Assembly (NCBI GenBank): GCA_032718475.1
Contig: JAUCBJ010008561.1
Coordinates: forward strand, 1-43,745
Source: Nemertoderma westbladi
Lineage: Eukaryota; Animalia; Xenacoelomorpha
DNA: 43,745 nt
Reading direction: 5' to 3'
Positions 1 to 37,038 of the stretch are shown here, in pieces (within the stretch, counting starts at the first letter, position 1; the number at the start of each line of letters is the position of its first letter). Made by a program: the position numbers and the translations under genes. The notes below the pieces were generated by a model that saw nothing but the letters and a program-made list of their open reading frames with translations, made no database searches and had not been told where the DNA came from.

Positions 1-247
1 GATGCAACGACGCGAACCAATACTGACGGGAGGTAACAGCTGTAGGAGTAAGGAGGGCATCGCGAGGTTAGGCTACGCGTAGGTGATACGCAGCGATTGG
101 CTGAAGGCAAGAATACTGTTGGTGACAGATGGTCATTAAACACCACGATTTAGCACCGGAATTTGGCATTTTTTAATTGCCTCCGAGATGTGGCCCGTAG
201 CCCAGGCTAGGGAGGAGTTAGCCGAGGGCTATGCTTCTCCTACTACT
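1..247. mobile_element. Probable terminus (TIR) of a Polinton/Maverick-like element abutting the satellite; partial
   Basis: Ends ...CTCCTACTACT at 247 (AGTAGTAGGAG on the minus strand). The first 9 nt are the same as the TIRs at 21466/28213, and satellite sequence (cctgttatgg) starts immediately after. Only the end motif supports the call. Confidence 0.45.
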
Positions 248-9200: not shown

Positions 9201-12066
9201 GGTTCTAAAGTCTACACTCAAACATACATCCTACAATCATACATCCTGTTATGGTTCTAAAGTCTACACTCAAACATACATCCTACAATCATACACCCTG
9301 TTATGGTTCTAAAGTCTACACTCAAACATACATCCTACAATCATACACCCTGTTATGGTTCTAAAGTCTACACTCAAACATACATCCTACAATCATACAT
9401 CATGTTATGGTTCTAAAGTCTACACTCAAACATACATCCTACAATCATACACCCTGTTATGGTTCTAAAGTCTACACTCAAACATACATCCTACAATCAT
9501 ACACCCTGTTATGGTTCTAAAGTCTACACTCAAACATACATCCTACAATCATACATCCTGTTATGGTTCTAAAGTCTACACTCAAACCTACATCCTACAA
9601 TCATACACCCTGTTATGGTTCTAAAGTCTACACTCAAACATACATCCTACAATCATACACCCTGTTATGGTTCTAAAGTCTACACTCAAACATACATCCT
9701 ACAATCATACACACTGTTATGGTTCTAAAGTCTACACTCAAACATACATCCTACAATCATTCATCCTGTTATGGTTCTAAAGTCTACACTCAAGCATACA
9801 TCCTACAATCATACACCCTGTTATGGTTCTAAAGTCTACACTCAAACATACTACATCCTACAATCATACACCCTGTTATGGTTCTAAAGACTACACTCAA
9901 ACATACATCCTACAATCTACAATCATACACCCTGTTATGGTTCTAAAGTCTACACTCAAACATACATCTCATACACCCTGTTATGGTTCTAAAGTCTACA
10001 CTCAAACATACATCCTACAATCATACATCCTGTTATGGTTCTAAAGTCTACACTCAAACCTACATCCTACAATCATACATCCTGTTATGGTTCTAAAGTC
10101 TACACTCAAACATACTACATCCTACAATCATACACCCTGTTATGGTTCTAAAGTCTACACTCAAACATACATCCTACAATCATACACACTGTTATGGTTC
10201 TAAAGTCTACACTCAAACATACATCCTACAATCATTCATCCTGTTATGGTTCTAAAGTCTACACTCAAGCATACATCCTACAATCATACACCCTGTTATG
10301 GTTCTAAAGTCTACACTCAAACATACTACATCCTACAATCATACACCCTGTTATGGTTCTAAAGACTACACTCAAACATACATCCTACAATCTACAATCA
10401 TACACCCTGTTATGGTTCTAAAGTCTACACTCAAACATACATCTCATACACCCTGTTATGGTTCTAAAGTCTACACTCAAACATACATCCTACAATCATT
10501 CACCCTGTTATGGTTCTAAAGTCTACACTCAAACATACTACATCCTACAATCATACACCCTGCTATGGTTCTAAAGACTACACTCAAACATACATCCTAC
10601 AATCATACACCCTGTTATGGTTCTAAAGTCTACACTCAAACATACATCCTACAGTCATACACCCTGTTATGGTTCTAAAGTCTACACTCAAACATACTAC
10701 ATCCTACAATCATACACCCTGTTATGGTTCTAAAGTCTACACTCAAACATACATCCTATAATCTACAATCATACACCCTGTTATGGTTCTAAATTCTACA
10801 ATCAAACATACATCCTACAATCATTCACCCTGTTATGGTTCTAAAGTCTACACTCAAACATACATCCTACAATCATACATCCTGTTATGGTTCTAAAGTC
10901 TACACTCAAACATACATCCTACAATCATACACCCTGTTATGGTTCTAAAGTCTACACTCAAACATACATCCTACAATCATACACCCTGTTATGGTTCTAA
11001 AGTCTACACTCAAACATACATCCTACAATCATACATCCTGTTATGGTTCTAAAGTCTACACTCAAACATACATCCTACAATCATACATCCTGTTATGGTT
11101 CTAAAGTCTACACTCAAACATACATCCTACAATCATACACCCTGTTATGGTTCTAAAGTCTACACTCAAACATACATCCTATAATCTACAATCATACACC
11201 CTGTTATGGTTCTAAATTCTACACTCAAACATACATCCTACAATCATTCACCCTGTTATGGTTCTAAAGTCTACACTCAAACATACATCCTACAATCATA
11301 CATCCTGTTATGGTTCTAAAGTCTACACTCAAACATACTTCCTACAATCTACAATCATACACCCTGTTATGGTTCTAAAGTCTACACTCAAACATACATC
11401 CTACAATCTACAATCATACACCCTGTTATGGTTCTAAAGTCTACACTCAAACATACATCCTACAATCATACATCCTGTTATGGTTCTAAAGTCTACACTC
11501 AAACATACATCCTACAATCTACAATCATACATCCTGTTATGGTTCTAAAGTCTACACTCAAACATACATCCTACAATCATACATCCTGTTATGGTTCTAA
11601 AGTCTACACTCAAACATACATCCTACAATCATACACCCTGTTATGGTTCTAAAGTCTACACTCAAACATACATCCTACAATCATACACCCTGTTATGGTT
11701 CTAAAGTCTACACTCAAACATACATCCTATAATCTACAATCATACATCCTGTTATGGTTCTAAAGTCTACACTCAAACATACATCCTACAATCATACACC
11801 CTGTTATGGTTCTAAAGTCTACACTCAAACATACATCCTACAATCATACACCCTGTTATGGTTCTAAAGTCTACACTCAAACATACATCCTATAATCTAC
11901 AATCATACACCCTGTTATGGTTCTAAATTCTACAATCAAACATACATCCTACAATCATACACCCTGTTATGGTTCTAAAGTCTACACTCAAACATACATC
12001 CTACAATCATTCACCCTGTTATGGTTCTAAAGTCTACACTCAAACATACATCCTACAATCATACAT
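248..12066. repeat. 52-bp tandem satellite, main block (roughly 220 units)
   Basis: Unit GGTTCTAAAGTCTACACTCAAACATACATCCTACAATCATACACCCTGTTAT; 6001 to 6781 is exactly 15 x 52 bp. Variants include +3 (TAC), +7 (TCTACAA), -6 and point changes. Confidence 0.99.
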
Positions 12067-12232
12067 GTCAATCATACATATAATCATACGATAAGTATAC
12101 AATCATACAATCATACGATAAGTATTGGTAACTGCAACTGCAATACTGCTGTACTGGTTGAATACTGCAATACTGACTCTGAGACGTACTGCCTGACTTC
12201 TGCAAATAACACTGTTGTACCGGTACTGGGTT

Positions 12233-13714
12233 ATGACGACAGTGGCTACCGTAACTGCGGCCTTGGCTGCAGACGCTGCTTCATGTAGTCATGTCGAATG
12301 TGATGTTCTATCTTACCTGTGGACCTCGCATGTAAAAGGTTATACACGGGACTCTATTGTATCCATAGTTCAATCATGGCATCGTTTCACAGATGCAATG
12401 TTTAAAGAAGCGAAAAATATATTGCTGTCATTGATTCCTGGTAGCGACAGGGAGAAGAGTAAGCAATCCTTTGCAAAGTCGCGCCAATTAGGTGAGTCGT
12501 TTCGCAAGAATACCGTATGCGACATTCTGGACATCTTTGATTATGATGGGTTCATAAATCGAACTGGTAGCCTTCCTCGATTTGTACCCAGTGATTTGGC
12601 TATAATTCCGCCTTTCGCTCTCAGTCACGCCGATACTGCTGTGATGCTTCGTCAATTGAGTGTCATGCAGGACCGTCTAGCAGTAATAGAGGCGGTTTGT
12701 CTGTCTCCGGGTGGATATTCCCCTTCTACAACTTCTTCGCAACAAGGTGCGATAGCTGTGGTTCCGGTACGGGTACCGGTACCGGTAACTTCTTGTACCG
12801 GCAGCTGTAGTCAACAGTCACCCTACATCTGCAAACCTGATGACAGGCCAGTTATTTCAGTTCCTCGTAATAACACCCTTGCTAGCGGAGCTAATCGTAC
12901 CGGTGAACCTAATTCGAACCTAAACTTCAGTGCTGCCCTAGGTCATAACCCTCTGGCACCCGTATTCGTAGCTGCATCACGATCTCCTTCTCCGTTATCT
13001 CAAGCGTCGTCGGGGCCTGCTACTACCGGTAGTGGCACTGGCAGGTCTAGCTTGGTAGCCAACAGCATGTATCCGAATGTTCCACAACAGTGTGATGAAG
13101 AATTCTCAGTTCCATATTCTCAGCGTAAGCGTGCTAAGCGGCAGTTGTGCAACCAGCAGCCGTCGACGGATAACTGGGCATCCAGCAGCGGCAGGCCATC
13201 ATTTGTAAAAGGGTCCTCAACATCTACTAGTTTTCGCACAGTTCAACCTTCACGGAAGCTATTCTTAACAGGATGTCATCCTGACGTTGAAGCTGCTACA
13301 ATTACTGGATTTGTTAAAGATAAGCTCGGGTTTGATGTAATTTGCAAGAAAATTTCGTCAGACGCGGCTTCTGTTCGTTCGTTCCTGATTATTTGTTCTG
13401 ACTCCGAGCGGACATTGCTTTTGAACCCTACTATCTGGCCTCTATATGCAAGAATTAGGGACTTTGAACAGCGCAATCGTATCAATCCGAAATCGGCAAC
13501 GAATTCCGGGTTTTCTGCTAGACCTAACAGCAGCAGCAGAGAAGTTTTGGATCCACAGGTTCCTCAGGGTACCTCTGCCCCTGCCCCTGTACCCAACACT
13601 AACCCTCAAACAGATATACATGACGTCGATGTGAGCTCGGACGTGATGGAGGTTAGCCATAGAGATAGTGACAATTCTGAGCTGTTCCTTAATCTAATTG
13701 ACCCCGCAACGTGA
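12233..13714 (+). CDS. LINE ORF1 protein (N-terminal helical/coiled-coil region, low-complexity linker, C-terminal RRM-like domain)
   Basis: Open frame from 12215 with first ATG at 12233. The motifs LPRFVPSDLAIIPP and KLFLTG...SFLI...NPTIWPLYARIRDF resemble CR1/L2-group ORF1. Lies directly upstream of ORF2. Confidence 0.85.
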   Translation: MTTVATVTAALAADAASCSHVECDVLSYLWTSHVKGYTRDSIVSIVQSWHRFTDAMFKEAKNILLSLIPGSDREKSKQSFAKSRQLGESFRKNTVCDILDIFDYDGFINRTGSLPRFVPSDLAIIPPFALSHADTAVMLRQLSVMQDRLAVIEAVCLSPGGYSPSTTSSQQGAIAVVPVRVPVPVTSCTGSCSQQSPYICKPDDRPVISVPRNNTLASGANRTGEPNSNLNFSAALGHNPLAPVFVAASRSPSPLSQASSGPATTGSGTGRSSLVANSMYPNVPQQCDEEFSVPYSQRKRAKRQLCNQQPSTDNWASSSGRPSFVKGSSTSTSFRTVQPSRKLFLTGCHPDVEAATITGFVKDKLGFDVICKKISSDAASVRSFLIICSDSERTLLLNPTIWPLYARIRDFEQRNRINPKSATNSGFSARPNSSSREVLDPQVPQGTSAPAPVPNTNPQTDIHDVDVSSDVMEVSHRDSDNSELFLNLIDPAT

Positions 13715-13839
13715 TCTTGGTTCTGTTAATGTAATTCTGTGAATAACTTTTATATGTATATACACACATATTTATTTATATTTGATATTTTGCATTGATT
13801 TTATTGCGGAGATATTTATATTTATTTTTGGAAACAACT

Positions 13840-16713
13840 ATGGCATCTCTAAATAATATAAAAATTGTATCATGGAATTGCAATTCCATAAAACATCCAA
13901 CATCGCAGAGAGTCATACAAGACTATTGCAATGCTGGTTGTGATATTATATTGCTGCAAGAACTTTGTATTCCTAAGCAGGAATTATCTTTGCTGTCCCA
14001 ATTACACCCACAATACTTAGGTAGTGGGGTGTCACCAGTATGCAATTCTGCCGGTATACTGTCTGGGCGTCCTTATGGTGGTGTAGCCATCCTGTATAAC
14101 AATAAAATTTCTCATGCTGTAGAAATTTTATCATTTCATAATGAGCGCTTCATTGGTGCGGTTGTTACACTTAGTAATATGGAAAAACTATTAGTAATTA
14201 ATGTGTACATGCCATATCAGTGTGAAGATAACGAAACATCGTATATAAGTTGTCTCGGTGATATTAAATCTATTTTTGAGGATGTAGCATTTACTTACTT
14301 GTGTGTAATAGGTGACTTCAATGCTCACCCTGACCCTAGCCGGTCATTTCACTTGTTTTTAACAGAATGGTGCAATAATGAAGGTCTACAAATATTTGAT
14401 ATCGGTAATTTACCATCCGACACATTTACGTATATAAGTGATGCTCACTTGACCACCTCATGGCTTGACCATGTTGTTTGCACTCCCTCTACAGGTAGTT
14501 TAATTGAATCCCTTTCAGTGGACTATGTATCTTCCATAAGGGATCACATGCCTATAATTGTTAATTTTTCTGTAACTGTGTGCGTCAGCCCCATTACACA
14601 GCCTGGCCCTGGTCGGCCCAACCCACACCAGCCCACTAAATTGAACTGGGCAGCCACCTCTCCAGAGTCCATTGATACTTTCAAGTATCGTGTGAAAACT
14701 AATCTTGATATGTATATAATTAACAACAATTTATTAAACTGTATGGACACTAAATGTTCGGTTCATAATGACGATATTGATATCTTGTACAATAGTGTTG
14801 TATCAATTTTAACTACTTGTGCTGTAGAATGTATTAAATCGAATCCCACTGTAAATTGTAACTCCACCCAGCGCCACATTCCAGGCTGGAATGACCTTGT
14901 GGAGGAGAAACACAGTGAGGCTCGATTAAAATTCCTGTGTTGGAGATCTTCTGGGTCTCCAAGGCAGGGGCAAATATTTTCTGATTACCTAAGTGCTAAG
15001 GCTAATTTTAAGCGTTCCCTTAGGGCGTGTAAACGTGAAGAGGATAATATCCGTAACGGTAAAATAGCGAATTCACTATTGTCTAGTGGTGCATCATCAA
15101 CCACGTTTTGGTCCAATGTGCACAAATGTTGTTCTAGTACAACTGTATTGCCTAATAAAGTGGGCGATGCTGTTGGTCCCAATCAAATTAGCGATCTGTG
15201 GAAGTCTCATTTTCACACTCTACTGAACTGCGTTAAGGACGATTCCGATAAGGAATTCGTTTCTGAAAAACTTATTGGAACTTCATTTCGTGCAGATTGC
15301 ATTGTTAGTAATAATGAAATTTTTGAAGCTATTAATAGCCTATCTATTGGAAAGGCTGTTGGCCCAGACGGGTTACAAGCTGAGCACTTGATTAATGGCT
15401 GCTGTGTATCGTTACTTGATATTTTGGCTGTGCTTATTAATAGTATTTTTGTTCATGGTTATATGCCATCACTCATGATGGAATCCATTATTGTTCCACT
15501 TATCAAAGATAAAACAGGTGACCATACTTGTAAGGACAATTACAGGGGCATTTCAATTGCAACAGGTTTGAGCAAACTTGTAGAAAGCGTTATTTTAGCG
15601 CGTAGTTTAGCGCTAATGTATACAACTGATAACCAGTTTGGTTTCAAATCCAAACTTGGAACGGAATATTGTATTTACACCCTTAAGGAGATCATAAACT
15701 TTTACCTTTCTAGCAACACTCCAGTATATGTGTGTATGCTTGACGCCAGTAAAGCGTTTGACCGTGTCAACCACTTTACCCTACTCCGTAAACTTATATT
15801 ACGAGGTTTTCCATTATATATAGTACGGCTAATTTTGTTTTGGTATCGATCCCAACTCATGTATGTTATGTGGGGTGGTATTTTTTCTGCCAAATTTATG
15901 GTGACTAATGGAACGAAACAGGGAGGTATACTCTCGCCGTTGCTGTATAATGTATATATTGACGATCTGAGTAAGGAGCTCACAGAGGCTGGTGTTGGTT
16001 GTTATGTCGACTGCATCAGATTGAACCATATATGTTATGCTGATGATATGTGCCTGATTTCGAATTCTATTTTCGGTTTACAACGGTTAATTGACATTGC
16101 CGTTAAATATGCTGATATTAATTCAATTATATTTAACACGAAAAAGTCTAAGTGTTTATACTTCCTCCCGAAAGGATCGTCAGTTATTCGGCGCCCTAAT
16201 GTGTTTCTGTATGGTGTTGCTATTGAAATTGTAAATAAATTCAATTATTTAGGCCATATTTTACATTGTACAATGGATGATGACTATGATATTCTTAACC
16301 AAACTTGTAAGTTATATTCTAGAGCTAATTTTATTATTAGGAAATTTAGCGGCTGTGCAAATAATGTAAAAGTGCAATTGTTCCGTGCATTCTGTACGCC
16401 GATTTATTGTAATGCCTTATGGGCTAGGCGTAATTACTCAGATCGTATCCACAGTAAACTTAAAGTAGCCTATAATAATTGTGCAAGGCGATTATTTGGG
16501 TTACCAAGAGTTACTGATGGACAGACATCGAGTATTTCACTAGCGCTCGGTATGTTGAATATACCATTATTTATACATATCAGATATAGATCAGTAATCA
16601 GTCTATTTGATCGTATAAACAAGATAGATAATACACTATTGCAAGCATTAAATACGGCAGTAGTTAAGATATCACGAATACGTGAAATGAAAGACCCTGT
16701 ATTTCTAACCTAA
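13840..16713 (+). CDS. LINE ORF2: APE endonuclease + reverse transcriptase
   Basis: APE motifs SWNCN, LLQE, GGVAIL, GDFN, WLDH, DHMP; RT motifs QFGF, LDASKAFDRV, GTKQGGILSPLLY, YADD, YLG. ATG at 13840. Confidence 0.97.
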   Translation: MASLNNIKIVSWNCNSIKHPTSQRVIQDYCNAGCDIILLQELCIPKQELSLLSQLHPQYLGSGVSPVCNSAGILSGRPYGGVAILYNNKISHAVEILSFHNERFIGAVVTLSNMEKLLVINVYMPYQCEDNETSYISCLGDIKSIFEDVAFTYLCVIGDFNAHPDPSRSFHLFLTEWCNNEGLQIFDIGNLPSDTFTYISDAHLTTSWLDHVVCTPSTGSLIESLSVDYVSSIRDHMPIIVNFSVTVCVSPITQPGPGRPNPHQPTKLNWAATSPESIDTFKYRVKTNLDMYIINNNLLNCMDTKCSVHNDDIDILYNSVVSILTTCAVECIKSNPTVNCNSTQRHIPGWNDLVEEKHSEARLKFLCWRSSGSPRQGQIFSDYLSAKANFKRSLRACKREEDNIRNGKIANSLLSSGASSTTFWSNVHKCCSSTTVLPNKVGDAVGPNQISDLWKSHFHTLLNCVKDDSDKEFVSEKLIGTSFRADCIVSNNEIFEAINSLSIGKAVGPDGLQAEHLINGCCVSLLDILAVLINSIFVHGYMPSLMMESIIVPLIKDKTGDHTCKDNYRGISIATGLSKLVESVILARSLALMYTTDNQFGFKSKLGTEYCIYTLKEIINFYLSSNTPVYVCMLDASKAFDRVNHFTLLRKLILRGFPLYIVRLILFWYRSQLMYVMWGGIFSAKFMVTNGTKQGGILSPLLYNVYIDDLSKELTEAGVGCYVDCIRLNHICYADDMCLISNSIFGLQRLIDIAVKYADINSIIFNTKKSKCLYFLPKGSSVIRRPNVFLYGVAIEIVNKFNYLGHILHCTMDDDYDILNQTCKLYSRANFIIRKFSGCANNVKVQLFRAFCTPIYCNALWARRNYSDRIHSKLKVAYNNCARRLFGLPRVTDGQTSSISLALGMLNIPLFIHIRYRSVISLFDRINKIDNTLLQALNTAVVKISRIREMKDPVFLT

Positions 16714-16875: not shown

Positions 16876-16904
16876 AATAAAGAATATAATAATAATAATA
16901 ATAA
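16876..16904 (+). terminator. LINE polyadenylation-like signal and (TAA)6 tail
   Basis: AATAAA at 16876-16881; TAA x6 at 16887-16904. Confidence 0.8.
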
Positions 16905-17784
16905 CATCCTGTTATGGTTCTAAAGTCTACACTCAAACATACATCCTACAATCATACACCCTGTTATGGTTCTAAAGTCTACACTCAAACATACATCCTA
17001 TAATCTACAATCATACACCCTGTTATGGTTCTAAATTCTACACTCAAACATACATCCTACAATCATTCACCCTGTTATGGTTCTAAAGTCTACACTCAAA
17101 CATACATCCTACAATCATACATCCTGTTATGGTTCTAAAGTCTACACTCAAACATACTTCCTACAATCTACAATCATACACCCTGTTATGGTTCTAAAGT
17201 CTACACTCAAACATACATCCTACAATCTACAATCATACATCCTGTTATGGTTCTAAAGTCTACACTCAAACATACATCCTACAATCTACAATCATACATC
17301 CTGTTATGGTTCTAAAGTCTACACTCAAACATACATCCTACAATCATACATCCTGTTATGGTTCTAAAGTCTACACTCAAACATACATCCTACAATCATA
17401 CACCCTGTTATGGTTCTAAAGTCTACACTCAAACATACATCCTACAATCATACACCCTGTTATGGTTCTAAAGTCTACACTCAAACATACATCCTATAAT
17501 CTACAATCATACACCCTGTTATGGTTCTAAATTCTACACTCAAACATACATCCTACAATCATTCACCCTGTTATGGTTCTAAAGTCTACACTCAAACATA
17601 CATCCTACAATCATACATCCTGTTATGGTTCTAAAGTCTACACTCAAACATACTTCCTACAATCTACAATCATACATCCTGTTATGGTTCTAAAGTCTAC
17701 ACTCAAACATACATCCTACAATCATACACCCTGTTATGGTTCTAAAGTCTACACTCAAACATACATCCTACAATCATACATCCT
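16905..17784. repeat. 52-bp satellite, distal block
   Basis: Same unit, with the same diagnostic variants (aaattct, attcacc, cctataatc) as 10750-12060. Confidence 0.99.
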
Positions 17785-19452: not shown

Positions 19453-19573
19453 TTACTTAATTATTTCCTCTAAGAGGCATAGTTTATCAAGTGGTCTTTT
19501 GTAAACTCCCAAGGAGGTTTTTACTTCAACTGATCTAATTAACCCCACATGATCAGGGTATACTTGCGTTATA
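19453..19573 (-). pseudogene. C-terminal remnant of BEL/Pao Pol (DUF5641-like)
   Basis: Manual translation ITQVYPDHVGLIRSVEVKTSLGVYKRPLDKLCLLEEIIK* matches the VRSV.VKT..G...RP..KL motif that ends BEL Pol. Confidence 0.8.
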
Positions 19574-21465
19574 TACTATTTATTTCATTGTCACTTACAG
19601 ATAGGATGTACAATACTGTACCGTAGGCCACTTTAGTGGCGTCTGGAAAAATATGTAACTGGTAGTTGATTGGACCCGAATGGACGGGGATGTACATCCT
19701 AGGTATTTCCAGTTCGCTGAACAAAGGGAGTTGATCTCGCCACTTCATCCATTGACGTGTTGTATCTGGTGGGAGTGGGGTATCACAGTCTAATTCCATT
19801 GACCACATTTTTGCTATAACTAATCGACCTGCTATGATTAAAGGTAAGATAAAGTTAATGGGATCGTACGATCGTTTGCGAACATAACCCTTCACGACAT
19901 AATCGTCTATTTTTTGTTGATAAAGGGCACGGATTTGTGGCTGACCATGTAGCTGACGGATTAAATATGCGAAACGAGATTTTGCCATATTATAATTGAC
20001 ACCACTTGATACTACAGTGGGGTCACCTGCAATGGAGATAGAAGATCTATCATTAGGGTTCATGGATGTAATACCCGATAGTGCAGAATTAGGAGCATTT
20101 CTATCGAAATATACTGGACCATTGTGTCCCCCCATGGCATATTGTACATGATTTGAATTAGGAGCATTTACTGCAGACTGACCAACAGAGATTGAACTAG
20201 CAGTTACAGATGCTACAGGATTACATAAAAATCCAGGAGTCTCACTGTATTGATACTGTAGGCCAGTGGTACTATATGGGAAATATTGTCCCTCATCATA
20301 TAAGTTTTGTCCTCCCATGGCAAATGATGGGACGTGAGATATATTATGGGTATTGTATATCGCAGAAGAGGCAAACTTGGGGCGCCTCTCTTGTGCAGAT
20401 TGACCCGGAACATTGATGGGACATGATGGGACACTTTGACCTATGGGGTGGGAAGGGTGGGGGAATTGTCCCCCTATGGGGTATGTTGAAACATATATAG
20501 ATGGACATGTAAGGCTATTTACATCAAGAGATGTAAATGCCACAGGCTCCTCTTGACTATATTGTTCCCGGCTGGTAGTAAGATAGGATGGCACATATTG
20601 TCCTCCAGAAGTATAGGATGAATAAATGCATTGTCCGGCCGAGGAACTTCTAGGATATCTCTGAGAATACTGACTTAAGGAAGATGCAGTATTAAAAGGC
20701 GATGTTGGGTGTATAAAGAGACCAGTTGTACAAAAATTACCTAGTGGGATAATTTCAGAAACTCTACTATTAATTAGCGCACTAGTGGGTCTTATAGGAG
20801 ACGTAAGAGAAAAAATTGGAAGTTGAGATGACACTACTGACGTTGTTTCTACAGTGACAGGGTAGGAATCAGATTGACTAGACTGCAGATTATTTTGTGC
20901 TGATTCATAGGAATCTGAGGCACTCACATTAACAGGTAGGCCCGTGGTTGCTATGGCAACAGGGTCGACTGGAGACTCTGATTGGTTCCTTGTATTAACA
21001 GTCACATTATTGTTAAGATTACTTTCAGTTTGTACACCAATTGGTACGTCATACGTGGGAGATCTTTTTGGTGATTGTAATAGCGCAGGAGCTACATAAT
21101 CTGCTTCTGCTTCTCCAAATTCAGGTGATTTCAACTCTAAAGCTTCTTCAAGTGCTGCAAGTGCAAGAGCATCGCGTAGGCCACGTTCCTTTGCCAAGCG
21201 AGTAATTTCTTTCTGTTGCCGCTCTGATTTTTGTAATATCAATGTGTCAGCCTGATCTGCCTGAGCAGCTGCTCCTGACTGCTCGAGCTGTAGCAGGAGT
21301 AATTTTCGCTTGACTTTGGCACGATGAACTCTAACTGATGCACTCGTCGAGGCTCGAGAATGTGCTGTAGAACCAGAGTGAGTTGAAATTATTCGATTAC
21401 GTTTGAGCTCGCCAACTTGCAATTGTTCATGAGATGATACATACTGTGGAACATCTGAAGACACA
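19569..21465 (-). pseudogene. Mosaic BEL/Pao gag-pol ORF lacking Gag core, protease, RT and integrase
   Basis: Ser-rich/coiled-coil start, then the pre-RT motif NYNMAKSRF...Y...IDDYVVKGY joined directly to the Pao RNase H/A17 motifs YDPI...W...IPR...LHIFPDATKVAYG. The first ~34 aa of the listed ORF are TIR read-through. Confidence 0.8.
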
Positions 21466-21896
21466 AGTAGTAGGGTCTTCCTCCTCTCTGTGACAGTTGG
21501 ACCTAACTGACACCCATTGGGTGTCATATGACACCCAATTATCACCCTATGGGTGTCATTGGGTGTCATTGGCGCCAGACTGTCTGGGTGACACCTCCCA
21601 ATTAGGCTAATTAGACCCTAATTGACAGGTGTCATCAATTAATTAGTATAATTAAACCCTAACAGGTGTCATATGACTCCTAATTAGGGTTTAATTGATT
21701 ATCCTAATTAATCAGACTGATTAGCGCCCTGACACACAATGGGTCATCAGTGATGTCCAACTGTCGCAGAGAAGGGGGAAGAGGGTGTCATAAGTGACAC
21801 CGCAGCTCTTTTATTCATTAATACCTATTTATTTATATTTAATTTTAATTAATTATTTGTACTTTATTTTACTTTATTTATTCATTTGTACTTTAT
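21466..21896 (+). repeat. Left terminal inverted repeat
   Basis: Reverse complement of 27783-28213; no mismatch noticed by eye. Confidence 0.95.
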
Positions 21897-22499
21897 TTTA
21901 AATTAATTAATTGTTTATATTACTTTTACTTTATACATTGATTTCTATTTTTAGATTAATTAGTTTTTATATTACCAACGAGATCACTATGACATAATAT
22001 CTATTTTTAACTTTATAATGGCTATGGTATACGGCTCCCTACTGGCAACTATCAACTACGTTCATCGGCGGGGGGCCCCTCCTCTGCCATCATTATTCAT
22101 TAACTAGATACAACAGGCAGTGAATCTACACGTATACCCCAAGGCAAATATAAATGAGCGATCCCGTCTGTTAGCAGTCCCTTCGATGACTCACTAATAA
22201 TCCCATCGCGGCCTTGACTACAGCAAATCCCTATGTCGCCCAAGGCTAATGCTCTAGCGGCCCTCCATTGTTCCCACTATAGCCGACGTCGCTTTGTCCC
22301 TTTCCTATATCCAGGCAGCCCCTATCATAACAATGAAGCGCCTCTAATCACGCATTCCTCTCTACTAATCCCTTTCCTTTGCACCAGACCTGCTTCTGTT
22401 ATACAGCCAACTCAATATAATTAGTCAAGATGCTTACAAGAGTTTTCTAATAGATTCATCAACACGAGAAGTTGCCCTGGTAACCGCTTATGCATGAAC

Positions 22500-22620
22500 A
22501 GCCAATCAGCGGGCTTCATTTCTGCTGCTGCGCTCTGATTGGCTCATTTAAGAGACAAGGGCCTCCCCTACTAACCGAATTACTATTTAATAAGTCCCCA
22601 CCAATTTATTAGATCATTAT
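22500..22620 (+). promoter_or_regulatory. Putative Pol II promoter: two opposed CCAAT boxes, TATA-like box, Inr
   Basis: AGCCAATCAG at 22500, CTGATTGGCT at 22535, TATTTAATAA at 22584, and TCATT at 22614 about 30 bp after the TATA. Confidence 0.5.
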
Positions 22621-22741
22621 TTCAATTGCAAGTTACGATTAACATCATTTACCATTATTTTGTTTTCGAATTTAATATTATTTATTTAAGAATATTTATT
22701 TGTTATCATCAGTCAACAACCCACTTGTAGAGTTGTATTAT

Positions 22742-23552
22742 TGTCATTTCGCCGCGTTTTCGCTCATCGTCGACAACAAACTTTCCGCGTATCCACCGCG
22801 TAATATTTCAATATTTCTAATTTCCGATACCATTCCGTTCTATCGGTTGATAAACTCTCTCGTCGTCCACGTCAACCAACTTCCTCATCGCCACCGAACT
22901 TCCAAACTTCTTCTTTCCGTGAATATTTACTAACACCGTAAGTAAAATCTGCCTTCCATCTAGCTATACTTTCGACGCCGCTAGCAAACAATTTACATTT
23001 AATGTCTACCGGTACAACAGTATTGCAGTAGGCTCATTATTAATTACTGTCAGACTGCGGTGGTACCGATAGCCTAAACCGTGATCGAAGCATTCGATCA
23101 ATAGGCTTACATCCGCCTATCTGCTTACAGTATTTTTTATCTTTTTACAAATAATCATCTTATTTTTCTAGTATCATTTCGCCGTGCTATTGCTCATCGT
23201 CGACAACAAACTTTCCGCATATCCGCCGCGTAATATTCCATTATTTCTAATTTCCGATATCATTCCGTTCTATCGATTAATAAACTCTCTCGTCGTCCAC
23301 GTCAACCAACTTCTTCGCGAACATCCAAACTTCTTCTTTCCGTGAATATTTACTAATACCGTAAGTAAAATCTGCCTTCCACCATCTGACGGTACTATCG
23401 ATGCCGCTAGCAAACAATTTACATTTATTATCTACCAGTACAACAGTATTGCAGTAGGCTCACTATTAATTACTGTCAGACTGCGGTGGTACCGATAGCC
23501 TAAACCATGATCGAAGCATTCGCTCATTAGGCCTAAATGTGTCTATCTGCTT
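22742..23552 (+). repeat. ~430-bp diverged tandem duplication of an apparent non-coding exon-intron unit
   Basis: 22742-23171 aligns with 23172 onward; GTAAGT donors at 22938 and 23361; homologous ...TATTTTTCTAG acceptors ending at 23171 and 24065. Confidence 0.8.
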
Positions 23553-24072
23553 GTCTACCCAACTACCGGTACCGCATCATTCGAGTTAGCCTAGTGCCAC
23601 TGTAGTAACGATATAGACCCTACTGAACAACAATGAATACTGCAGTTTTCACTATATATCCTACTGACTAACTGAGATCTCACACAGCGATTAGCTAAGC
23701 CTATCGTTGATTTCTATTGGTTAACGCTACCGGTACGTCTGACTTGTAGCAGACTATATCACTAGCACTACTGCACTGACTGACTGCTGTTTATAGACCC
23801 TCTTTCCACGAATAATAACTGCCATCGCTATTGTGTCTTGGTTATCGCCACTATCTGACCGCTGGTACACTAACACTACCACACTAGACACTGCCGACTG
23901 TCTGCTTTATGTTTCACTGACTGATTGCTACAATACAGCAATAGGCCTAACTATACAAACACAGTATTGTTGCCTAGTAACCGATTAATATCCACTGTTT
24001 TACTTTATTTTTAGCACGTATACAGTATTTTTTATTTTTTATAAATAATCAACGTATTTTTCTAGATTCAAG

Positions 24073-24909
24073 ATGCCAAGATCAACAAATAAAGTTAGCT
24101 GTCCCATCTGCGACAAAGAGATGCGGAGTGATAATCTAAAATCCCATATTAAAACTCATTTCGTGCAATATCGATGCGACTGCTGTCCGACTTGGTCTTC
24201 GGAAAAGAAGACGCTGGTTGGCCATCTTGCTTCGTGTCCTCAGGGGGGAACAGGATTTAGTTACGTAAACGAGCCAGCCGATTGCCGCTGCGGGGATTCG
24301 CTCACCCTGTCATCCTTTTCTGAGCATGAATGCTACACTCGACTTTTTTCGCGGAAACGCAAAACTCCGACTACCTCCCACTCATCCCCCATCAACTCTA
24401 CTCCAGAACAAGTCGGCGGCGGCGGCTCCAATAATGAACCTTCAACTTCGCGAGATTCTATTTCCCCAAACAATCCATTTCAACCCCCCTCCAACGGAAG
24501 CGCACACGGACGACTGTTTACCTATAACAACGACCTCACAGAAACAAGACTCGATGCTGAATTAACATTAAACGAAAATTTTCCACACATTCAAGAACAC
24601 GTTAGTAGCCATTTACGTAGTGCCATGGGAACTTTTTTAAGAGTCTGGCTTACAATCAACATCGTAATGGAGCGTGAAACGAGCGAGGGATTTCAAATTG
24701 AATCTTTCTGTTTTAAATCTAGCGGTAACAATAATCAAATTCTAAATAATAGCGACTTTAATAACTGGTTTTCTAGCGCCGTCAATCGTATCGATCAACT
24801 GTTAAGCGTGTTTCTCTGCCTCGGCTCGGGTTGGCGCATAATAGCCATCGAGCGAATAACTATTGAGATTGCATGTTCCCAACGCAACCCCTATTTAACG
24901 GGTCAATAG
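24073..24909 (+). CDS. Zinc-finger protein fused to a domain resembling the N-terminal (GSGW) region of Polinton protein-primed PolB
   Basis: CPICDKEMRSDNLKSHIKTH (C2H2), further C/H clusters, basic RKRK, then LRVWLTINIVMER...FKS...IDQLLSVFLCLGSGWRIIAIERITIEI. Confidence 0.75.
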   Translation: MPRSTNKVSCPICDKEMRSDNLKSHIKTHFVQYRCDCCPTWSSEKKTLVGHLASCPQGGTGFSYVNEPADCRCGDSLTLSSFSEHECYTRLFSRKRKTPTTSHSSPINSTPEQVGGGGSNNEPSTSRDSISPNNPFQPPSNGSAHGRLFTYNNDLTETRLDAELTLNENFPHIQEHVSSHLRSAMGTFLRVWLTINIVMERETSEGFQIESFCFKSSGNNNQILNNSDFNNWFSSAVNRIDQLLSVFLCLGSGWRIIAIERITIEIACSQRNPYLTGQ

Positions 24910-24929
24910 GATTTAATTTTAATTTCTAG

Positions 24930-25445
24930 AATAAGAAATTGAGCATCAAAATAGAATTAACCAATAAACAGTTTACCGGAAAAAACATTGCCAAATTTGA
25001 ACTAGAGAAAATTTCACAGCAAATTACAGGTCAAAGATGCTTAAAACCAAACATGTTTATCTACAAAGGTGACGATTCAACTATAATGCTATTTCCCAGC
25101 GGCGCAGTAACAATTGTAGGCCTGTGCAATAATTTAGCTAGTGAATTGCTTTATTTAAAACAAACTATCGGTTTGCAATTACAAAATTTGAAACTTAATA
25201 CCGAAACACGAACTATTATTTTTCCAAGTGTTAATTTTAAATTATTAATGAAAAAATGTGGACATCATACAATTAATAATAAAGCAATATTTATTAGCTA
25301 TACCCCTGAATTATTTTGCGCGATTAGAATATATATAGGACGTGCATATTTCAGTGTATTTCATAGTAATAAAATTGTTTCCATGTGTCCTGCCGGTGAA
25401 TTCCCCGGATCATTATCTATTTTACAAACTTTATTATTAAATTAG
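24930..25445 (+). CDS. Divergent TATA-binding-protein-like ORF, probably a spliced 3' exon
   Basis: TIMLFPSGAVTIVG, SYTPELFCAI and FSVFHSNKIV mirror the TBP repeat motifs LIFxSGKxVxTG and SYEPELFPGL. The frame opens right after TTTCTAG (24929) with no ATG until codon ~42. Confidence 0.7.
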   Translation, partial: NKKLSIKIELTNKQFTGKNIAKFELEKISQQITGQRCLKPNMFIYKGDDSTIMLFPSGAVTIVGLCNNLASELLYLKQTIGLQLQNLKLNTETRTIIFPSVNFKLLMKKCGHHTINNKAIFISYTPELFCAIRIYIGRAYFSVFHSNKIVSMCPAGEFPGSLSILQTLLLN

Positions 25446-25487
25446 TTTATTTACTATGGTATACATGAAAGTTTACTATATTATTTA

Positions 25488-26010
25488 TTTTGTGTTGGTT
25501 TTTATTTTTCCGTGAGTAGGGTTTGAATCCATGACCATCCGTGTTACCTACTTTTTATAATTGCATTAGTAGGACTCGAACCCTGGTTTAACTTATTTTG
25601 TGTTGGTTTTATAATGGTCGCGAGTAGGGATTGAACCCATGACCTTCTGTTTATTTTCCATAAAACGGGATATGAATAGGGATCGAACCTGTGAGCATAT
25701 GTTTTTCCTAATTTATGTTTAGTTTAGGTACTCTAGTTATTTTATGTTTAACTTATTTTGTGTTGGTTGTATATTGGTCGCGAGTAGGGATTGAACCTAT
25801 GGCCTCCTGTTTATTTTCCATAAAACGGGATATGACTAGGGATCGAACATGTGACCACCTGTTTATCCTATTTTATGTTTAGTTTAGGTACTCTAGTTAT
25901 TCTATGTTTAACTTATTTTGTGTTGGTTTTATATTGGTCGCGGAGTAGGGATTGAACCCGTGACCATCTGTTTATCCTATTTTGTGTTTAGTTTAGTTAC
26001 TCTATGTTAA
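25488..26010 (-). repeat. Degenerate tandem repeats (~160 bp period) carrying about seven Pol III B-box/T-arm motifs
   Basis: Plus-strand GGGATTGAACC, GGGATCGAACC and GGACTCGAACC read GGTTCRAnnCC on the minus strand, near 25520, 25572, 25628, 25680, 25788, 25840 and 25949. Confidence 0.75.
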
Positions 26011-26370
26011 AGTGAATTTTCACATTATATTTATGTTAAATGATAAATTTATGCTACAATTATTATTTATATTATAAAAACAGAAATATTCGAGTTATAT
26101 TGCATTATATATTTTTCATTGAAGTGGAATACTTTAGATGTTGTTTGCGAGGGATATTTGAATGGTGAGTATAACTATCCTTGAGAGCTAGTGCGACGTT
26201 ATCTCACTATGGATGGGCTTTACCACTGTACTCGCACCTGAAAGGTTAGCTGTGGTGTATTAGTTACGCTTAGCATTAGAGAATCCGTCCGTATCACCGA
26301 CTAGACAGCGAATCTGGCAACCCAGTTTTTGTTCTAGAGGCTTCAGTTTGTTGTAAATCAGGGCGTTAGG

Positions 26371-27053
26371 CACTGAGGCATAGACTATGACTCACTGAGG
26401 CATAGACTATGCCTCACTGAGGCATAGACTATGCCTCACTGGGGCACTGAGGCATAGACTATGACTCACTGAGGCATAGACTATGCCTCACTGAGGCACT
26501 GAGGCATAGACTATGACTCACTGAGGCACTGAGGCATAGAATGTGACTCACTGAGGCATAGACTATGACTCACTGAGGCATAGACTATGCCTCAGTGAGG
26601 CATAGACTATGACTCACTGAGGCATAGGCTATGCCTCAGTGAGGCATAGACTATGACTCACTGAGGCATAGACTATGTCTCACTGAGGCATAGACTATGC
26701 CTCACTGCCTCAGTGAGGCATAGACTATGCCTCACTGAGGCACTGAGGCATAGTCTATGCCTCACTGAGGCATAGTCTATGCCTCACTGAGGCATAGACT
26801 ATGACTCACTGAGGCATAGTCTATGCCTCACTGAGGCATAGATCTATGCCTCAGTGAGGCATAGACTATGCCTCACTGAGGCACTGAGGCATAGACTATG
26901 CCTCACTGAGGCACTGAGGCATAGACTATGCCTCACTGAGGCATAGTCTATGCCTCAGTGAGGCAGTGAGTCATAGTCTATGCCTCACTGAGGCATAGTC
27001 TATGCCTCAGTGAGGCATAGTCTATGCCTCAGTGCCTCAGTGAGGCATAGTCT
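26371..27053. repeat. 22-bp self-complementary minisatellite
   Basis: Unit CACTGAGGCATAGACTATGCCT, built from overlapping palindromes TATGCCTCA-c-TGAGGCATA and TGAGGCATAG-a-CTATGCCTCA. Confidence 0.95.
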
Positions 27054-27116
27054 GTGTCAGGTCTTAAATGTGAGTCTTACAAATTCGAACGTCAACGAAC
27101 AAATTCGAAGGTTACT

Positions 27117-27200
27117 GTTCCACCTTGGTGTAGTGGTTGCGTTGAATTCACATCTCCCGTATGTCATGGGTTCGATCCCCGCATGAACCAGGGCAGTTTT
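27117..27200 (+). ncRNA. tRNA-like Pol III unit (pseudo-tRNA or SINE head)
   Basis: A box TGGTGTAGTGG, B box GGTTCGATCCC, GTTC/GAAC end pairing, CCA at 27188-27190 and TTTT at 27197. The anticodon arm pairs poorly. Confidence 0.55.
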
Positions 27201-27274
27201 CGTTTGGTTAGCAATAGGCCTAACGTTGCAAAATGCTGTATTATTGCCTAGTAACCAATTCATGGCTACCGTAT

Positions 27275-27570
27275 GGTTTTCACTTTAAGACATTTCGCCC
27301 TCTAGCGGCAGACTGGGGAACTTCAGACTACTCTGTGACCCTGCAAAAGATATAGCCTATGCCGTAATAGATGCCGATTGGGGGGTCAAATTAAGTAATA
27401 ATATATCTAAATAAGCCTCAAACATCTTGCCTCATGGCTCGCCCCTTAGAACTCTTAAGCAATATAACTTCATGGTTTTGCGGATTGTAAATAACAAAGC
27501 TAGAGAAGATGTTAATTTTTAAACAATACGCCCTCTAGCGGCAGACTATGGAACTGCAGACGGCTGGACA
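27275..27570. repeat. Two copies of the Helitron-internal ~146-bp repeat family inside the TIR element
   Basis: GACATTTCGCCCTCTAGCGGCAGACTGGGGAACT...AAGATATAGCCTATGC and GATTGTAAATAACAAAG...GAAGATGTTAA match 33700-34800. Confidence 0.85.
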
Positions 27571-27782
27571 TAGATAAGAGTAATTAGTAATCAGAGCTGT
27601 CACGAGAGGGGGGCGGGGCGCTTGGATACAACTATTATTAATAAGCTGTTGCTTGGTTAAAGCTAATTGGGGGTCAAAGGTCAAAGGTCAACGATAAAGC
27701 TGTCTGGATATAGATAAGAGTAATTAGTTACCAGTAAGGGAGCTGTATACCCATAAAGTACAAATGAATAATTAATATAAAT

Positions 27783-28213
27783 ATAAAGTACAAATGAATA
27801 AATAAAGTAAAATAAAGTACAAATAATTAATTAAAATTAAATATAAATAAATAGGTATTAATGAATAAAAGAGCTGCGGTGTCACTTATGACACCCTCTT
27901 CCCCCTTCTCTGCGACAGTTGGACATCACTGATGACCCATTGTGTGTCAGGGCGCTAATCAGTCTGATTAATTAGGATAATCAATTAAACCCTAATTAGG
28001 AGTCATATGACACCTGTTAGGGTTTAATTATACTAATTAATTGATGACACCTGTCAATTAGGGTCTAATTAGCCTAATTGGGAGGTGTCACCCAGACAGT
28101 CTGGCGCCAATGACACCCAATGACACCCATAGGGTGATAATTGGGTGTCATATGACACCCAATGGGTGTCAGTTAGGTCCAACTGTCACAGAGAGGAGGA
28201 AGACCCTACTACT
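27783..28213 (-). repeat. Right terminal inverted repeat
   Basis: Reverse complement of 21466-21896; ends CCCTACTACT. Confidence 0.95.
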
Positions 28214-28215
28214 CA

Positions 28216-29976
28216 TACCCTTTCGTTGATACTCAGCTGATTGCTCCCTGGGCAGAAGGTCGAGGTTTCTTCCGCACTATGTATGCTAATACGCCTAGCA
28301 ACATTACCAAGGTGCAACGAACTTCCATTGGACATCTTGCCTTTCAGGAATACGGATGGAATTTCAAAGTCGGAAATCCCATTAACTATCAACAAGTATA
28401 CGGAGATCATTATTCTCGATTGTACTTTGATGGACCATTAACCGCACCTGGCGCCGTGTATAGCTTCATGAGTGTTCCACTCCGTCCCTCCTTAGCTATA
28501 TACACGATCTTTGAAAACACCGCACTTGCCGGTTGGCTAGCCGATGTGTGCAGTCGTACTATACACGCCCATCCATTAATACTTGGGACCAAACTCGCTA
28601 AGCTAGATGAACATAATAAATTCATCCGTTTCGAATGTTTCCGGCGATTTTTAACCCCGTTCCGCAACGTGGATAGCCAATTTAAAGACCGCGCTTTGAC
28701 CAAGCTCAGCCTAAGAGACTCAGCTGCAGAGAAGTTGGATAGCGCTGGATTCGCCGTTTTCCAAGAGATTTGTATATCGAACTTACACTCCTCTGTTATA
28801 CAAAGACCTCGAATCCCCACAGGTTATTCTGTCGTGGAAATTCAGACAATAGGTCCACCTGAAGAGACAGACGCGCCCACTTCAGCTATGCACTTGGAAG
28901 ACGAACCAATATGTCTAGAATCTGAAGAGATTCAGCCTATCGCGCCCCGGACCAGCGACAACGATTACATCATAGAATGGTATCAAGGTCCACAGTGTCT
29001 CATTGCGTACGATTATCGACATGCCAACTATGTTTCTAGGCAACGTTGTCGGTTATGCGCATCGAGAGACCACGATACGCCCATGGACACCAACGTCCGC
29101 TGTTCCTATTTCCAAGAACAACCGACTATGGAAATTTATTGCGCATATTGCAGACTCAATAACTTGCATATCTTTGCGGTTTGCCCTCAATTTATGACTC
29201 AATGTCACCATTGTCAACTAAAGGGACATGCCAGTTTCGATTGCCCTTTTAATCACGATTTGGAAAGCGTAGATGAAATGATCACACTACGTTACATCAG
29301 AGCTTGGGAAGCGAACGCTGATTTACATTGTGATTCGCGCCATCGCTATTATCCCGGACGCGCTTACGAAGGAGTTTATGCGTTCCATCCTTATCTATTC
29401 GCTTCGGTTGAACAGAAATCACGCATATCAAGTTACGAGCTACTGAAGCGCGTCGGAGAATGTATTTCAACCAAATTCGTACGCAAATTTCTCAGGAGTG
29501 TTAATCCTAGCGACCTTCATTCCTATAACTTAATCAATTATATCCGTCAGGATCCGGACTATGGAGACTTGTTTATTAACTCACACCCCGAGTTACAGGA
29601 AGTATATCGACGGCCTTACGAATACCGAGCCCGCGAACGCGAGTTGGAAAGAACCATTAAACCCCGGAGGTTTCTAACTGCCTATGGTCCACCCATGGCC
29701 CTCGTTCAGACCACTCGTAAAGGACCCGTAAGAGCGGCTGTCTTAAAACGAGCTCTCAAAGCCGTTAGACCCCTCTCCCCGGACGTTGATGTCAATCAAC
29801 CCGGTACTTCGACTGGCGGATACACCGACCATAATCCTACACCCTCTGATGCAATCATATTGCACCCTTCACCCAGGAGTTATAGCCCTCCTTGTAAAGT
29901 GGCTCGCCCCAAAGAGAAAAAGACTCTGGCTAGCTTTAAAAAACTGCGTAAACGCCGTCCGCGCAAGAAAGACTAA
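28216..29976 (+). CDS. Accessory Cys/His-rich zinc-knuckle protein with basic C-terminus; 5'-truncated
   Basis: Frame is open back to the TIR junction (first ATG 28279). CHHCQLKGHASFDC is CX2CX4HX4C; also CAYCRLNNLHIFAVC and CRLCASRDH; ends KKLRKRRPRKKD. The protein is conserved with the second copy despite many third-position changes. Confidence 0.85.
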   Translation, partial: YPFVDTQLIAPWAEGRGFFRTMYANTPSNITKVQRTSIGHLAFQEYGWNFKVGNPINYQQVYGDHYSRLYFDGPLTAPGAVYSFMSVPLRPSLAIYTIFENTALAGWLADVCSRTIHAHPLILGTKLAKLDEHNKFIRFECFRRFLTPFRNVDSQFKDRALTKLSLRDSAAEKLDSAGFAVFQEICISNLHSSVIQRPRIPTGYSVVEIQTIGPPEETDAPTSAMHLEDEPICLESEEIQPIAPRTSDNDYIIEWYQGPQCLIAYDYRHANYVSRQRCRLCASRDHDTPMDTNVRCSYFQEQPTMEIYCAYCRLNNLHIFAVCPQFMTQCHHCQLKGHASFDCPFNHDLESVDEMITLRYIRAWEANADLHCDSRHRYYPGRAYEGVYAFHPYLFASVEQKSRISSYELLKRVGECISTKFVRKFLRSVNPSDLHSYNLINYIRQDPDYGDLFINSHPELQEVYRRPYEYRARERELERTIKPRRFLTAYGPPMALVQTTRKGPVRAAVLKRALKAVRPLSPDVDVNQPGTSTGGYTDHNPTPSDAIILHPSPRSYSPPCKVARPKEKKTLASFKKLRKRRPRKKD

Positions 29977-30054
29977 CTGTTTAGAGTATTTACGTATATT
30001 AGAAACTGTGATTTTGTATATTTTATAGACTCAAATCCCATTTTCTGGGAGCGG

Positions 30055-31311
30055 TGTAAAAGCTTCTGTGGGATATAACTGGCCCTTTTGCTTCGCAATC
30101 CAGTTTCCCCCCTTGGCGCTGGAATACTCTAAAAGGCTCTATAACTATATATATATTCCCCTCGCCCGCAAGGTACCGTTATAGGTGTTTTAACGGACAT
30201 AAAAGTCATTCTGCTATATACGTGTTTTGGCGGACATGGTAAGGCAAAAAACCTGCAATGCACCAAATACCTTTCACAGCTTAGCCGTGATGATTCAGAT
30301 TGCGACATCTAGCAGCTGGTTGCTGGCATGGAAACAGCCATTGGACGCATGGTTCTTTGTTTGGCTTGAGCCAATCAGAGCGATTTTTTCTGTCGACGTG
30401 TAGATATTCGGTCGATCATACTAGGAGTGTTCAGTCTTACTGTTTTTTTGTGATACTGTTGTGTTGTTGCTATCTAGGCCAGGAACACCGGCTCTAGAGT
30501 CAACTCGTTTTCATACTTTAGAAGAAACATTAGTAGGCTTAAATTATAGAGCGTATAACTGTTATCTTATCTAATCATATCAACTGATCGCAATTCAGTC
30601 TTACATTATCGGTTCAATATACATTATTATACTGCTATTTGGTATTAGTTGGTCGAATATTATATGGAGAACATATATAAAGAACCCAAATTTCCCAATT
30701 TTCTTGATACACTACAGGTTAGAGAGACGGGTTATATATAGCGATTGCGACTTATATTGTTGTGGTTTGTAGTGAATTTAATGCTATTTGGTAAGCACTA
30801 CATGATTCGTTGCTGTTCTCTTTATATATGATAAAATTCATTGACGGTCGGCAAATTAGTGAGCAGTATCGTGTGTTACCGGTAGTGTGCATGATTGTGA
30901 CTGATAACTAAGCATTTCCTAAAGAATGCGCCTCATACGTGAATCATAAGCCTTACCGACTTGCCGTTGTGATTAGTATAAGTCATATCTCTGTTTACCT
31001 AGATTGAGCGCCACGTCCTAAAGGAACTGTTAATATTTCCCGAAAGTGAATAATATTAGTCAGAAATTATTTATTAACGATCAATCGAATAATACAATAC
31101 AGTAAGCTTACACTGCAATAATAATCTAAGCCCTCAGAATCCAGTCTCCCGGGTATATCCAGCGGGTGAATGGACGCGCACTAGGCTGGCTTCTGCTAAT
31201 GTTGTGTTTATTGGTATTAAATATTTGTCATCTTCTAAAGTCTATTTATAAACCAAAAGACATATAAATTTTGGCAGGTTAAACTGCTAAAGGTCTTCAA
31301 AAGCGCGTACA
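30055..31311 (+). repeat. 3' LTR (~1.26 kb)
   Basis: TGTA follows the PPT-like GGGAGCGG and the segment ends TACA, where homology to the second copy stops. CCAAT box near 30370 and TATATAAA near 30675. Confidence 0.75.
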
Positions 31312-35738: not shown

Positions 35739-36960
35739 TGTTCGCGCTTTTGAAGACCTTTAGCAGTTTAACCCGCCAAAATTTATATGTCTTCTAGTTA
35801 ATTAAAACCACTTTAGCATACGACAATATTTTATGCTAATACGCAAAACATTAGCCGAAGTCAGCCCATGCGCGATCATTCACCCGATGGATCTACACCC
35901 GGGGGACTGAATTCGGATGCTTGAATTGTATTATTACAGTGTAAGGTTGCAGTGTATACCTAATGTATTATTCGATAGATCGTTAATAATTAATCTCTGA
36001 CAGATATTATTGGCTTTCGGGAAATATTAACAGTTCCTTTAGGACGTGGCGCTTTATCTATTTAAACAGAACTAAGACTTATACTAAACGCAACGATACT
36101 GCTTATGATTAAAGTATAAAGCGTATTCTTTAGGAAATACTTTGTTACCAATCTCAATCATACACACTATTCTGCCGACAGTCAGTATATTTGATCACAC
36201 ATAAAGAGAGCAGTAATTGACTCACGTAGGGTCTGCTAAATAACATTGGATTCAATACACACCACATTAATATAAATCGCAATTGTTATGTATAGCCGGT
36301 CTCTCTAACCTGTAGTGTTATCAAGAAAATTGGGAATTGGGTGATTTATCCGTATTATCCAAATAGCAATATTTCCATCAACAAATAAGTACAATTAATA
36401 ACTGACGGTAAAATAACAGTACAAACAATATGATTAGTTAAATTGATCGGTAGTTAGTTAAGGTAACAGTTTATACTTTCGATAATTCAAGCAGTTTACG
36501 GTACAGCAGTATCTATCCAAAATGCCGGTGTTTCTGGCTTAGACAGCAATAACAACAAAGTATCAAGAAAAACCTGTAAGACTGAACACTCTCCTTATGA
36601 TCGACTAAAAAGCTACACATCGACAGGAAAAATCGCTCTGATTGGCTCAAGCCAAACAAAGAACCACACATCTAATGGCTGTCTCCATGTCAGCAACCAG
36701 CTGTTAGATGTCGTAATATGAATCATCACGGCTAAGCTGTGAAAGGTGGTTGGTGCATTGCGGGTTTTTTGCCTTACCATGTCCACTAAAACACGTATAT
36801 AGCAGAATTACTTTTATGTCCGTTAAAACACCTGTAAAGGTACCTTGCGGGCGAGGGGAATATATATACAGTCAGAGAACCCTTTTAGAGTATTCCAGCG
36901 CCTGGGGGGGAACTGGCCAGCCAAGGCAAACGTATCAGTTATCCCACAAAAGCTTTTACA
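35739..36960 (-). repeat. 3' LTR (~1.22 kb)
   Basis: Minus strand GGGAGCGG|TGTAAAAGC ... GCGCGAACA; homologous to 30055-31311. Confidence 0.75.
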
Positions 36961-37038
36961 CCGCTCCCAGAAAATGGGATTTAAGTCTATAAAATATACA
37001 AAATCACAGTTTCTAAAATACAAAAATACTCTAAACAG

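Follow-up and report, generated by a model that had tools for sequence, protein, structure and literature searches.

The window analysed here, a 43,745-nucleotide stretch of the xenacoelomorph Nemertoderma westbladi (contig JAUCBJ010008561.1, assembly GCA_032718475.1), contains on its forward strand a 278-amino-acid (aa) open reading frame (ORF) at 24073-24909, which ends with NPYLTGQ and a stop codon and sits inside a 6,748-bp Polinton-type unit (21466-28213). Its motifs start at aa 10 (CPIC), 25 (HIKTH), 35 (CDCC), 51 (HLASC), 94 (RKRK), 214 (FKS) and 251 (GSGW). A preliminary description of this DNA had read the ORF as zinc fingers joined to the N-terminal domain of a Polinton-type pPolB, i.e., as a possible terminal protein (TP) uncoupled from its polymerase. 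The finger motifs are indeed present, although the Pfam C2H2 scores stay under the curated cut-offs (zf-C2H2_4 matches two stretches within the first 100 aa at E 3.6e-5 and 24.6 bits, the cut-off being 27).

By profile and by fold, the C-terminal half of the ORF is a PRD1-like TP domain homologous to the domain preceding vOTU in Polinton-type pPolBs, as the preliminary description had proposed. Homologous loci were gathered by scanning with a degenerate vOTU motif taken from the text of that description; a first motif scan gave two stretches with no polymerase ORF, which were treated as chance. Among 178 motif-scan loci, 22 ORFs (21 distinct) carried the motif with at least 110 aa ahead of it and entered the TP profile, the rest being excluded; Pfam scans of six full-length source ORFs detected PF03175 in two and Endonuclease_7 in four, with no match in one. 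The profile of 21 pPolB pre-vOTU regions found the ORF at E 8e-8 among the 753 stop-to-stop ORFs of the window, the next best match being at 2.1. Since the score was 30.2 bits against at most 9.1 for 1000 shuffles and a reversed copy, and since the match survived masking of GSGW (E 0.0015), the GSGW domain represents more than chance resemblance. The alignment spans the entire domain; the loop residues G, S and W each reach at least 90%, a proline is invariant (13 rows), and the priming-loop serine is found in at least 90% of 19 aligned rows. Identity between the window domain and the aligned pPolB TP domains is only 12-20%, and single-sequence searches gave no match, whether with the whole ORF, with aa 145-278 against longer proteins, or against 1.84 billion representatives, viral and metagenome contigs and NCBIfam. 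Among the same 753 ORFs, a vOTU profile (28 ORFs) had no match at E<=5 and a profile of the downstream polymerase (11 ORFs) reached a best E of 0.99, i.e., no polymerase remnant.

A structure model of the TP domain, built from the single sequence (pLDDT 64, pTM 0.54; the first 25 residues below pLDDT 50 and beta1 poorly resolved), fits an LF/PAD-like fold of a four-stranded sheet and two helices, and matches adintovirus and MELD proteins as well as the little-finger domains of Y-polymerases. LF/PAD domains fill the top 10 VIA matches, and the same family ranked first in a Foldseek search of the PDB, but with no match at E<=0.001. At the level of the model, then, the anticipated structural similarity to TP domains is present. 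The best structural match is a 560-aa C2H2 protein of Drosophila-associated adintovirus 2 (UniProt A0A7D4VFN9, GenBank MT496848), on which the available text of the paper describing that virus (PMC8363768) gives no detail. ApeA_NTD1 clusters returned by the ESM Atlas for the TP domain (0.84-0.88) were rejected as bacterial and below 0.9. Krupovic et al. (10.1101/2024.03.18.585575) assigned the pre-vOTU domain of pPolB as the TP and placed the linking residue in the alpha2-beta4 loop. The view that the most N-terminal pPolB domain is the TP agrees with their assignment, and Ser252 stands in the model next to Gly at this very site, in the loop between helix 82-105 and strand 110-125 (model numbering), making it the putative nucleotide-linking, priming residue. 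In a large TP-vOTU family (L114:309-704 and most of P0001-P0060), E-G-Y-W replaces G-S-G-W in the priming loop, and the tyrosine may therefore be the linking residue there.

Homologs of the TP domain (60 proteins of 72-487 aa, most in one family and on short contigs, thus not independent) usually continue: 32 run on into vOTU, 12 end within 15 aa past the TP match, 13 stop inside TP and 3 have other tails. TP matches without vOTU in the homolog loci are partial or short. A C2H2 pattern stands ahead of TP in 20 of the 25 homologs with room upstream, and hence fingers plus TP form the usual front of the polymerase; stubs of this finger-TP front are common among the homologs.

The unit enclosing the ORF has Polinton-type ends: of the two forms considered, (AGT)2//(ACT)2 and (AG)3//(CT)3, its long inverted repeats AGTAGT...ACTACT show the former (Table 1). 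Further copies were sought in contigs of four public runs of the same species (X1-X4; three samples from three studies, X2 and X4 sharing one sample). Since 292 to 16,059 variant contigs cover the unit across these runs, it belongs to a multi-copy family. At the left border, the match of flank contigs from X2, X3 and X4 breaks off at 21466, where they continue into other sequence, and at the right border loose ends lie before 28214 in X1 and X2. A 6-bp target-site duplication was not found (flanks GACACA and CATACC). Given that both ends act as insertion borders without such a duplication, the two flanks probably derive from different sites, and the missing duplication points to a rearrangement involving two copies or to a deletion next to the element. 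Only two ATG-started ORFs longer than 80 aa lie wholly within the unit, the zinc finger-TP ORF and a TBP-like ORF. The core Polinton genes (pPolB, integrase, ATPase, protease and capsid) were not found in the element, which is thus not an autonomous Polinton. As for its surroundings, a Bel/Pao remnant adjoins the element on the left (border at 21460-21466) and another, unlike high-copy repeat on the right (border at 28213-28219).

Table 1. Features of the Polinton-type element and of the ORF it contains (positions in the window).
Feature	Position	Strand	Basis
Left terminal inverted repeat, begins AGTAGTAG	21466..21909	+	self-match 445 bp, 99.55% identical
426-bp tandem duplication with putative non-coding leader exons	22744..23552	+	tandem repeat and motif positions
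Two C2H2/C2HC-type zinc fingers (aa 1-55; motifs aa 10-55)	24073..24237	+	Pfam zf-C2H2_4 and motifs
RKRK basic motif (aa 94-97; candidate nuclear localization signal), followed by Ser/Pro/Asn-rich low-complexity linker	24352..24363	+	sequence
PRD1-like terminal-protein (D1) domain and linker, aa 145-278	24505..24906	+	profile, alignments, model and fold searches, pN/pS
Ser252 (of GSGW), putative priming residue	24826-24828	+	sequence, model
Junction; copies part from the window on both sides; stop codon (24907-24909) belongs to the right-hand side	24906..24907		loose contig ends
TBP-like ORF, 171 aa stop-to-stop, first ATG 25053	24930..25445	+	Pfam, ESM Atlas
Tandem arrays within the element, of a 160-bp unit (25586-25975) and of a palindromic 22-bp unit (26371-27050)	25586..27050		
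Right terminal inverted repeat, ends ACTACT	27769..28213	-	self-match 445 bp, 99.55% identical

The stop codon of the ORF is real and no assembly error, yet most copies do not have the junction on which it lies. In X1, X2 and X4, contigs follow the window precisely up to the last sense base of the ORF, 24906, and are unlike it from there on (24500-24960 examined), the departing contig in X1 running 255 letters further; conversely, one contig in each of X1-X4 joins at 24907 from unrelated sequence. Hence, the stop is placed on a deletion or recombination junction. Among the contigs listed, those identical to the window across 24906/24907 come only from X1 (depth 46.7) and X2 (244.6). At 24922, the bridging contig together with one variant contig makes up the full depth in X1 and X2; in X3 and X4 the variant by itself does so. 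The share of depth held by the window form is about 0.7 in X1 and 0.08-0.22 in X2, and the form is unseen in X3 and X4, summed contig depth being a rough measure and no copy number. Most of the coverage in three of the four runs comes from copies leaving the window sequence at 24906; the stop is therefore not conserved in other copies, and the clean stop remarked upon earlier, although real in the window copy, falls on a junction absent from most of them. Among the listed copy differences over 24500-24960 (40, with 13 more existing), 22 leave the protein unchanged, 18 replace a residue and no difference introduces a stop. The ratio of residue-changing to silent differences per site (pN/pS) of about 0.22 (binomial p 2e-6, or 2e-5 to 5e-4 with transition weighting) is indicative, as sites were taken singly from related copies, and it describes all copies, mostly of the non-window type. 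It points to a coding region constrained in the family rather than in the window copy itself, and frame-breaking indels in some minor contigs show that decayed copies exist as well.

Because every core Polinton gene is missing, the window element needs a longer parent. We consider it likely that the ORF is the surviving 5' part of a longer Polinton polymerase gene, carried by an internally deleted, defective copy in which a deletion or recombination would have joined the TP-coding front to a stop codon ahead of the TBP-like gene. In the parent, priming would begin with the linkage of the first nucleotide of the AGTAGT end to Ser252; the polymerase would then elongate from this linked nucleotide, and the vOTU protease would release the TP. 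The window copy would have lost its polymerase, integrase and capsid genes, and it would be mobile only if an intact relative supplied the lost proteins to its inverted repeats. Since the junction falls at the TP/vOTU boundary, the protein, if made, would resemble a mature TP, yet most likely as a by-product and not as a selected helper-recruiting device. The earlier suggestion of an element built to retain only its primer module and to recruit or compete for a helper polymerase is not supported, its stop being unshared by most copies; nor does the element keep only that module plus fingers, since the TBP-like gene is kept too.

Several observations weigh against a broken polymerase gene. The window-type junction is seen in two samples from two studies and is dominant in X1; the reading frame is undamaged, and the two inverted repeats share 99.6% identity. 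Moreover, the stop coincides exactly with position Pro+6, which in 16 of 21 pPolBs is occupied by the Tyr of the vOTU-opening motif, and a random deletion would rarely land in frame at the TP/vOTU boundary. That the window junction is unseen in X3 and X4 proves nothing, since contigs drop rare variants and X4 comes from the very sample of X2, in which the junction is present; furthermore, it is from the homolog architecture that we infer the read-through of other copies into a polymerase. The 560-aa adintovirus 2 protein may be a natural non-polymerase TP protein, and butterfly (Pieris) polintons without polB, seemingly amplified, are described in the available text of 10.1101/2025.02.07.637071.

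At 560 aa, the same protein cannot be a full pPolB (~1,300 aa) and would suit a parent family that already had a separate TP gene with a C-terminal extension, the window copy having lost the extension together with the core genes. Several polinton groups acquired split TP genes independently of one another, and a TP domain so divergent that it has no single-sequence match would also be in keeping with such a parent. We nevertheless hold this to be unlikely: the linker in the window retains both the conserved Pro and the distance from Ser to the boundary that fused pPolBs show, 32 of the 47 homologs whose TP is complete continue into vOTU, and the adintovirus protein may itself be a broken polymerase. 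The window copy itself does not qualify as a polinton with a naturally separate TP gene: its stop is not conserved across copies, and the profiles run on the window found no vOTU-pPolB gene. An improbable account, in our estimate, is a selected TP-only satellite, i.e., a deletion derivative that makes mature TP and either primes its own ends through a helper polymerase or sequesters it. Such a 6.7-kb satellite, encoding only a mature-length TP and a TBP-like factor, would exist as protein-capped linear DNA replicated by a helper Polinton polymerase. It would account for a stop at the site of predicted cleavage, for the intact Ser252-bearing ORF, the fresh inverted repeats, the upstream leader with its splice-like signals and the recurrence of the junction in two studies, and the polB-less butterfly polintons would offer a precedent. 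Against it, the window form makes up a minority in X2 and was not seen in X3 or X4, neither a target-site duplication nor a second locus came to light, and the purifying signal stems mostly from non-window copies; besides, the stand-alone TPs known so far bear helical extensions presumed to contact the polymerase, and D1 domains have none. A deletion is not the only event that would leave loose ends on either side of a single point; an insertion fits them equally well, so that the window form (a short TP gene followed by the TBP-like gene) might be ancestral and the commoner copies might carry an insertion at 24906/24907; with the non-window form present in all three samples and no core Polinton gene in the window element, this seems to us highly improbable.

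The nearest counterpart of the domain is D1 of Polinton, Maverick and adintovirus pPolBs, with which the modelled TP shares two helices on a beta-sheet, the LF/PAD-like fold and the Gly-adjacent Ser in the alpha2-beta4 loop; with Polinton D1 it also shares the linker Pro and, as in many homologs, upstream C2H2 fingers. Unlike these polymerases, the window copy has no vOTU, exonuclease or palm domain after its TP. Separate TP genes have already been published for polintons, e.g., that of Stylophora pistillata, and arose in several groups independently; there, and in the adenovirus pTP, the TP domain occupies its own ORF, as in the window. However, Stylophora-type polintons carry a vOTU-pPolB gene, and none was found in the window, while adenovirus and PRD1 TPs have helical extensions absent from the window TP. 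According to the available text of PMC8097293, (AGT)2//(ACT)2 is the commonest end motif of vertebrate Mavericks, 96% of which are defective. In these defective elements and in the polB-less butterfly ones, as far as the available text of both sources goes, long inverted repeats with AGTAGT ends enclose a gene set that is incomplete, as in the window, but the window copy keeps only the zinc finger-TP and TBP-like ORFs and is without a target-site duplication. For lizards, the available text of PMC3014272 reports that no non-autonomous Polintons were found. We found no published report of a TP-only non-autonomous Polinton, or of a TBP-like gene in an animal Polinton, in a search outside of which lay supplements, Repbase and most subscription papers.

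The window copy is thus best regarded as an ordinary defective Polinton, yet it tidily illustrates a prediction made in 2024, namely that the domain preceding vOTU is the TP of Polintons. Its family has diverged so far that the TP is recognised by profile and fold searches only, and it carries a TBP-like gene. If the TP-only form turned out to be amplified and expressed, it would provide a minimal primer protein of natural origin, with which one could examine directly whether the TP of a Polinton is able to act in trans; this is the step presumed to have led from polintons to adenoviruses. Should the window copy prove a satellite, it would be comparable to the defective interfering genome of an endogenous DNA virus.

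The TBP-like ORF matches Pfam TBP at E 0.0026 (18 bits, under the cut-off of 22.9), whereas its halves, searched separately in Pfam, gave no TBP match. In the ESM Atlas it scored 0.95, with 29 of 30 matches in the TBP set, though recognition was low (1835); its structure model is unusable (pLDDT 31), and a PDB sequence search gave nothing useful. The TBP match begins upstream of ATG 25053, directly after an acceptor-like TTTCTAG, which suggests that the ORF is expressed by splicing from an upstream exon. A TBP-like gene likewise occurs in the PolB-type linear double-stranded DNA elements known as MELD viruses, according to the legend of Fig. 5 in Starrett et al. (PMC8502044), a figure within a section on non-animal datasets, whereas the Bel/Pao neighbours of the window element suggest an animal host. 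GTAAGT donors at 22938 and 23361 and acceptor-like TTTCTAG sites at 23165, 24059 and 24923 lead us to infer splicing of the putative leader exons.

Further along the element, the 22-bp palindromic array forms many hairpins, and contig depth over it is very high in three runs out of the four; every Rfam match to it is under the gathering score. Repeated motifs resembling the tRNA B-box consensus lie on the minus strand of the 160-bp repeat (25485-26010), and a tRNA/SINE-like head (SINE, short interspersed element) on the plus strand at 27120-27190; ARAGORN found no tRNA and Rfam likewise calls neither. Pieces of a 146-147-bp array unit lie within the element at 27272-27375 and 27481-27565. This unit forms tandem arrays in two inverted copies (83% identical) of a Cys/His-rich ORF unit at 28892-31311 and 35739-38122, whose 565-aa ORF had no Pfam match better than E 0.42. 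Elsewhere in the window, a 52-bp satellite (~211 overlapping matches) at 179-12065 and 16904-17784 is interrupted by an apparently intact long interspersed element (ORF1 at 12233-13714; endonuclease and reverse transcriptase ORF at 13840-16713), and remnants of Bel/Pao long-terminal-repeat retrotransposons (Peptidase_A17, DUF1759) lie at 19569-21465 and 40110-43745.
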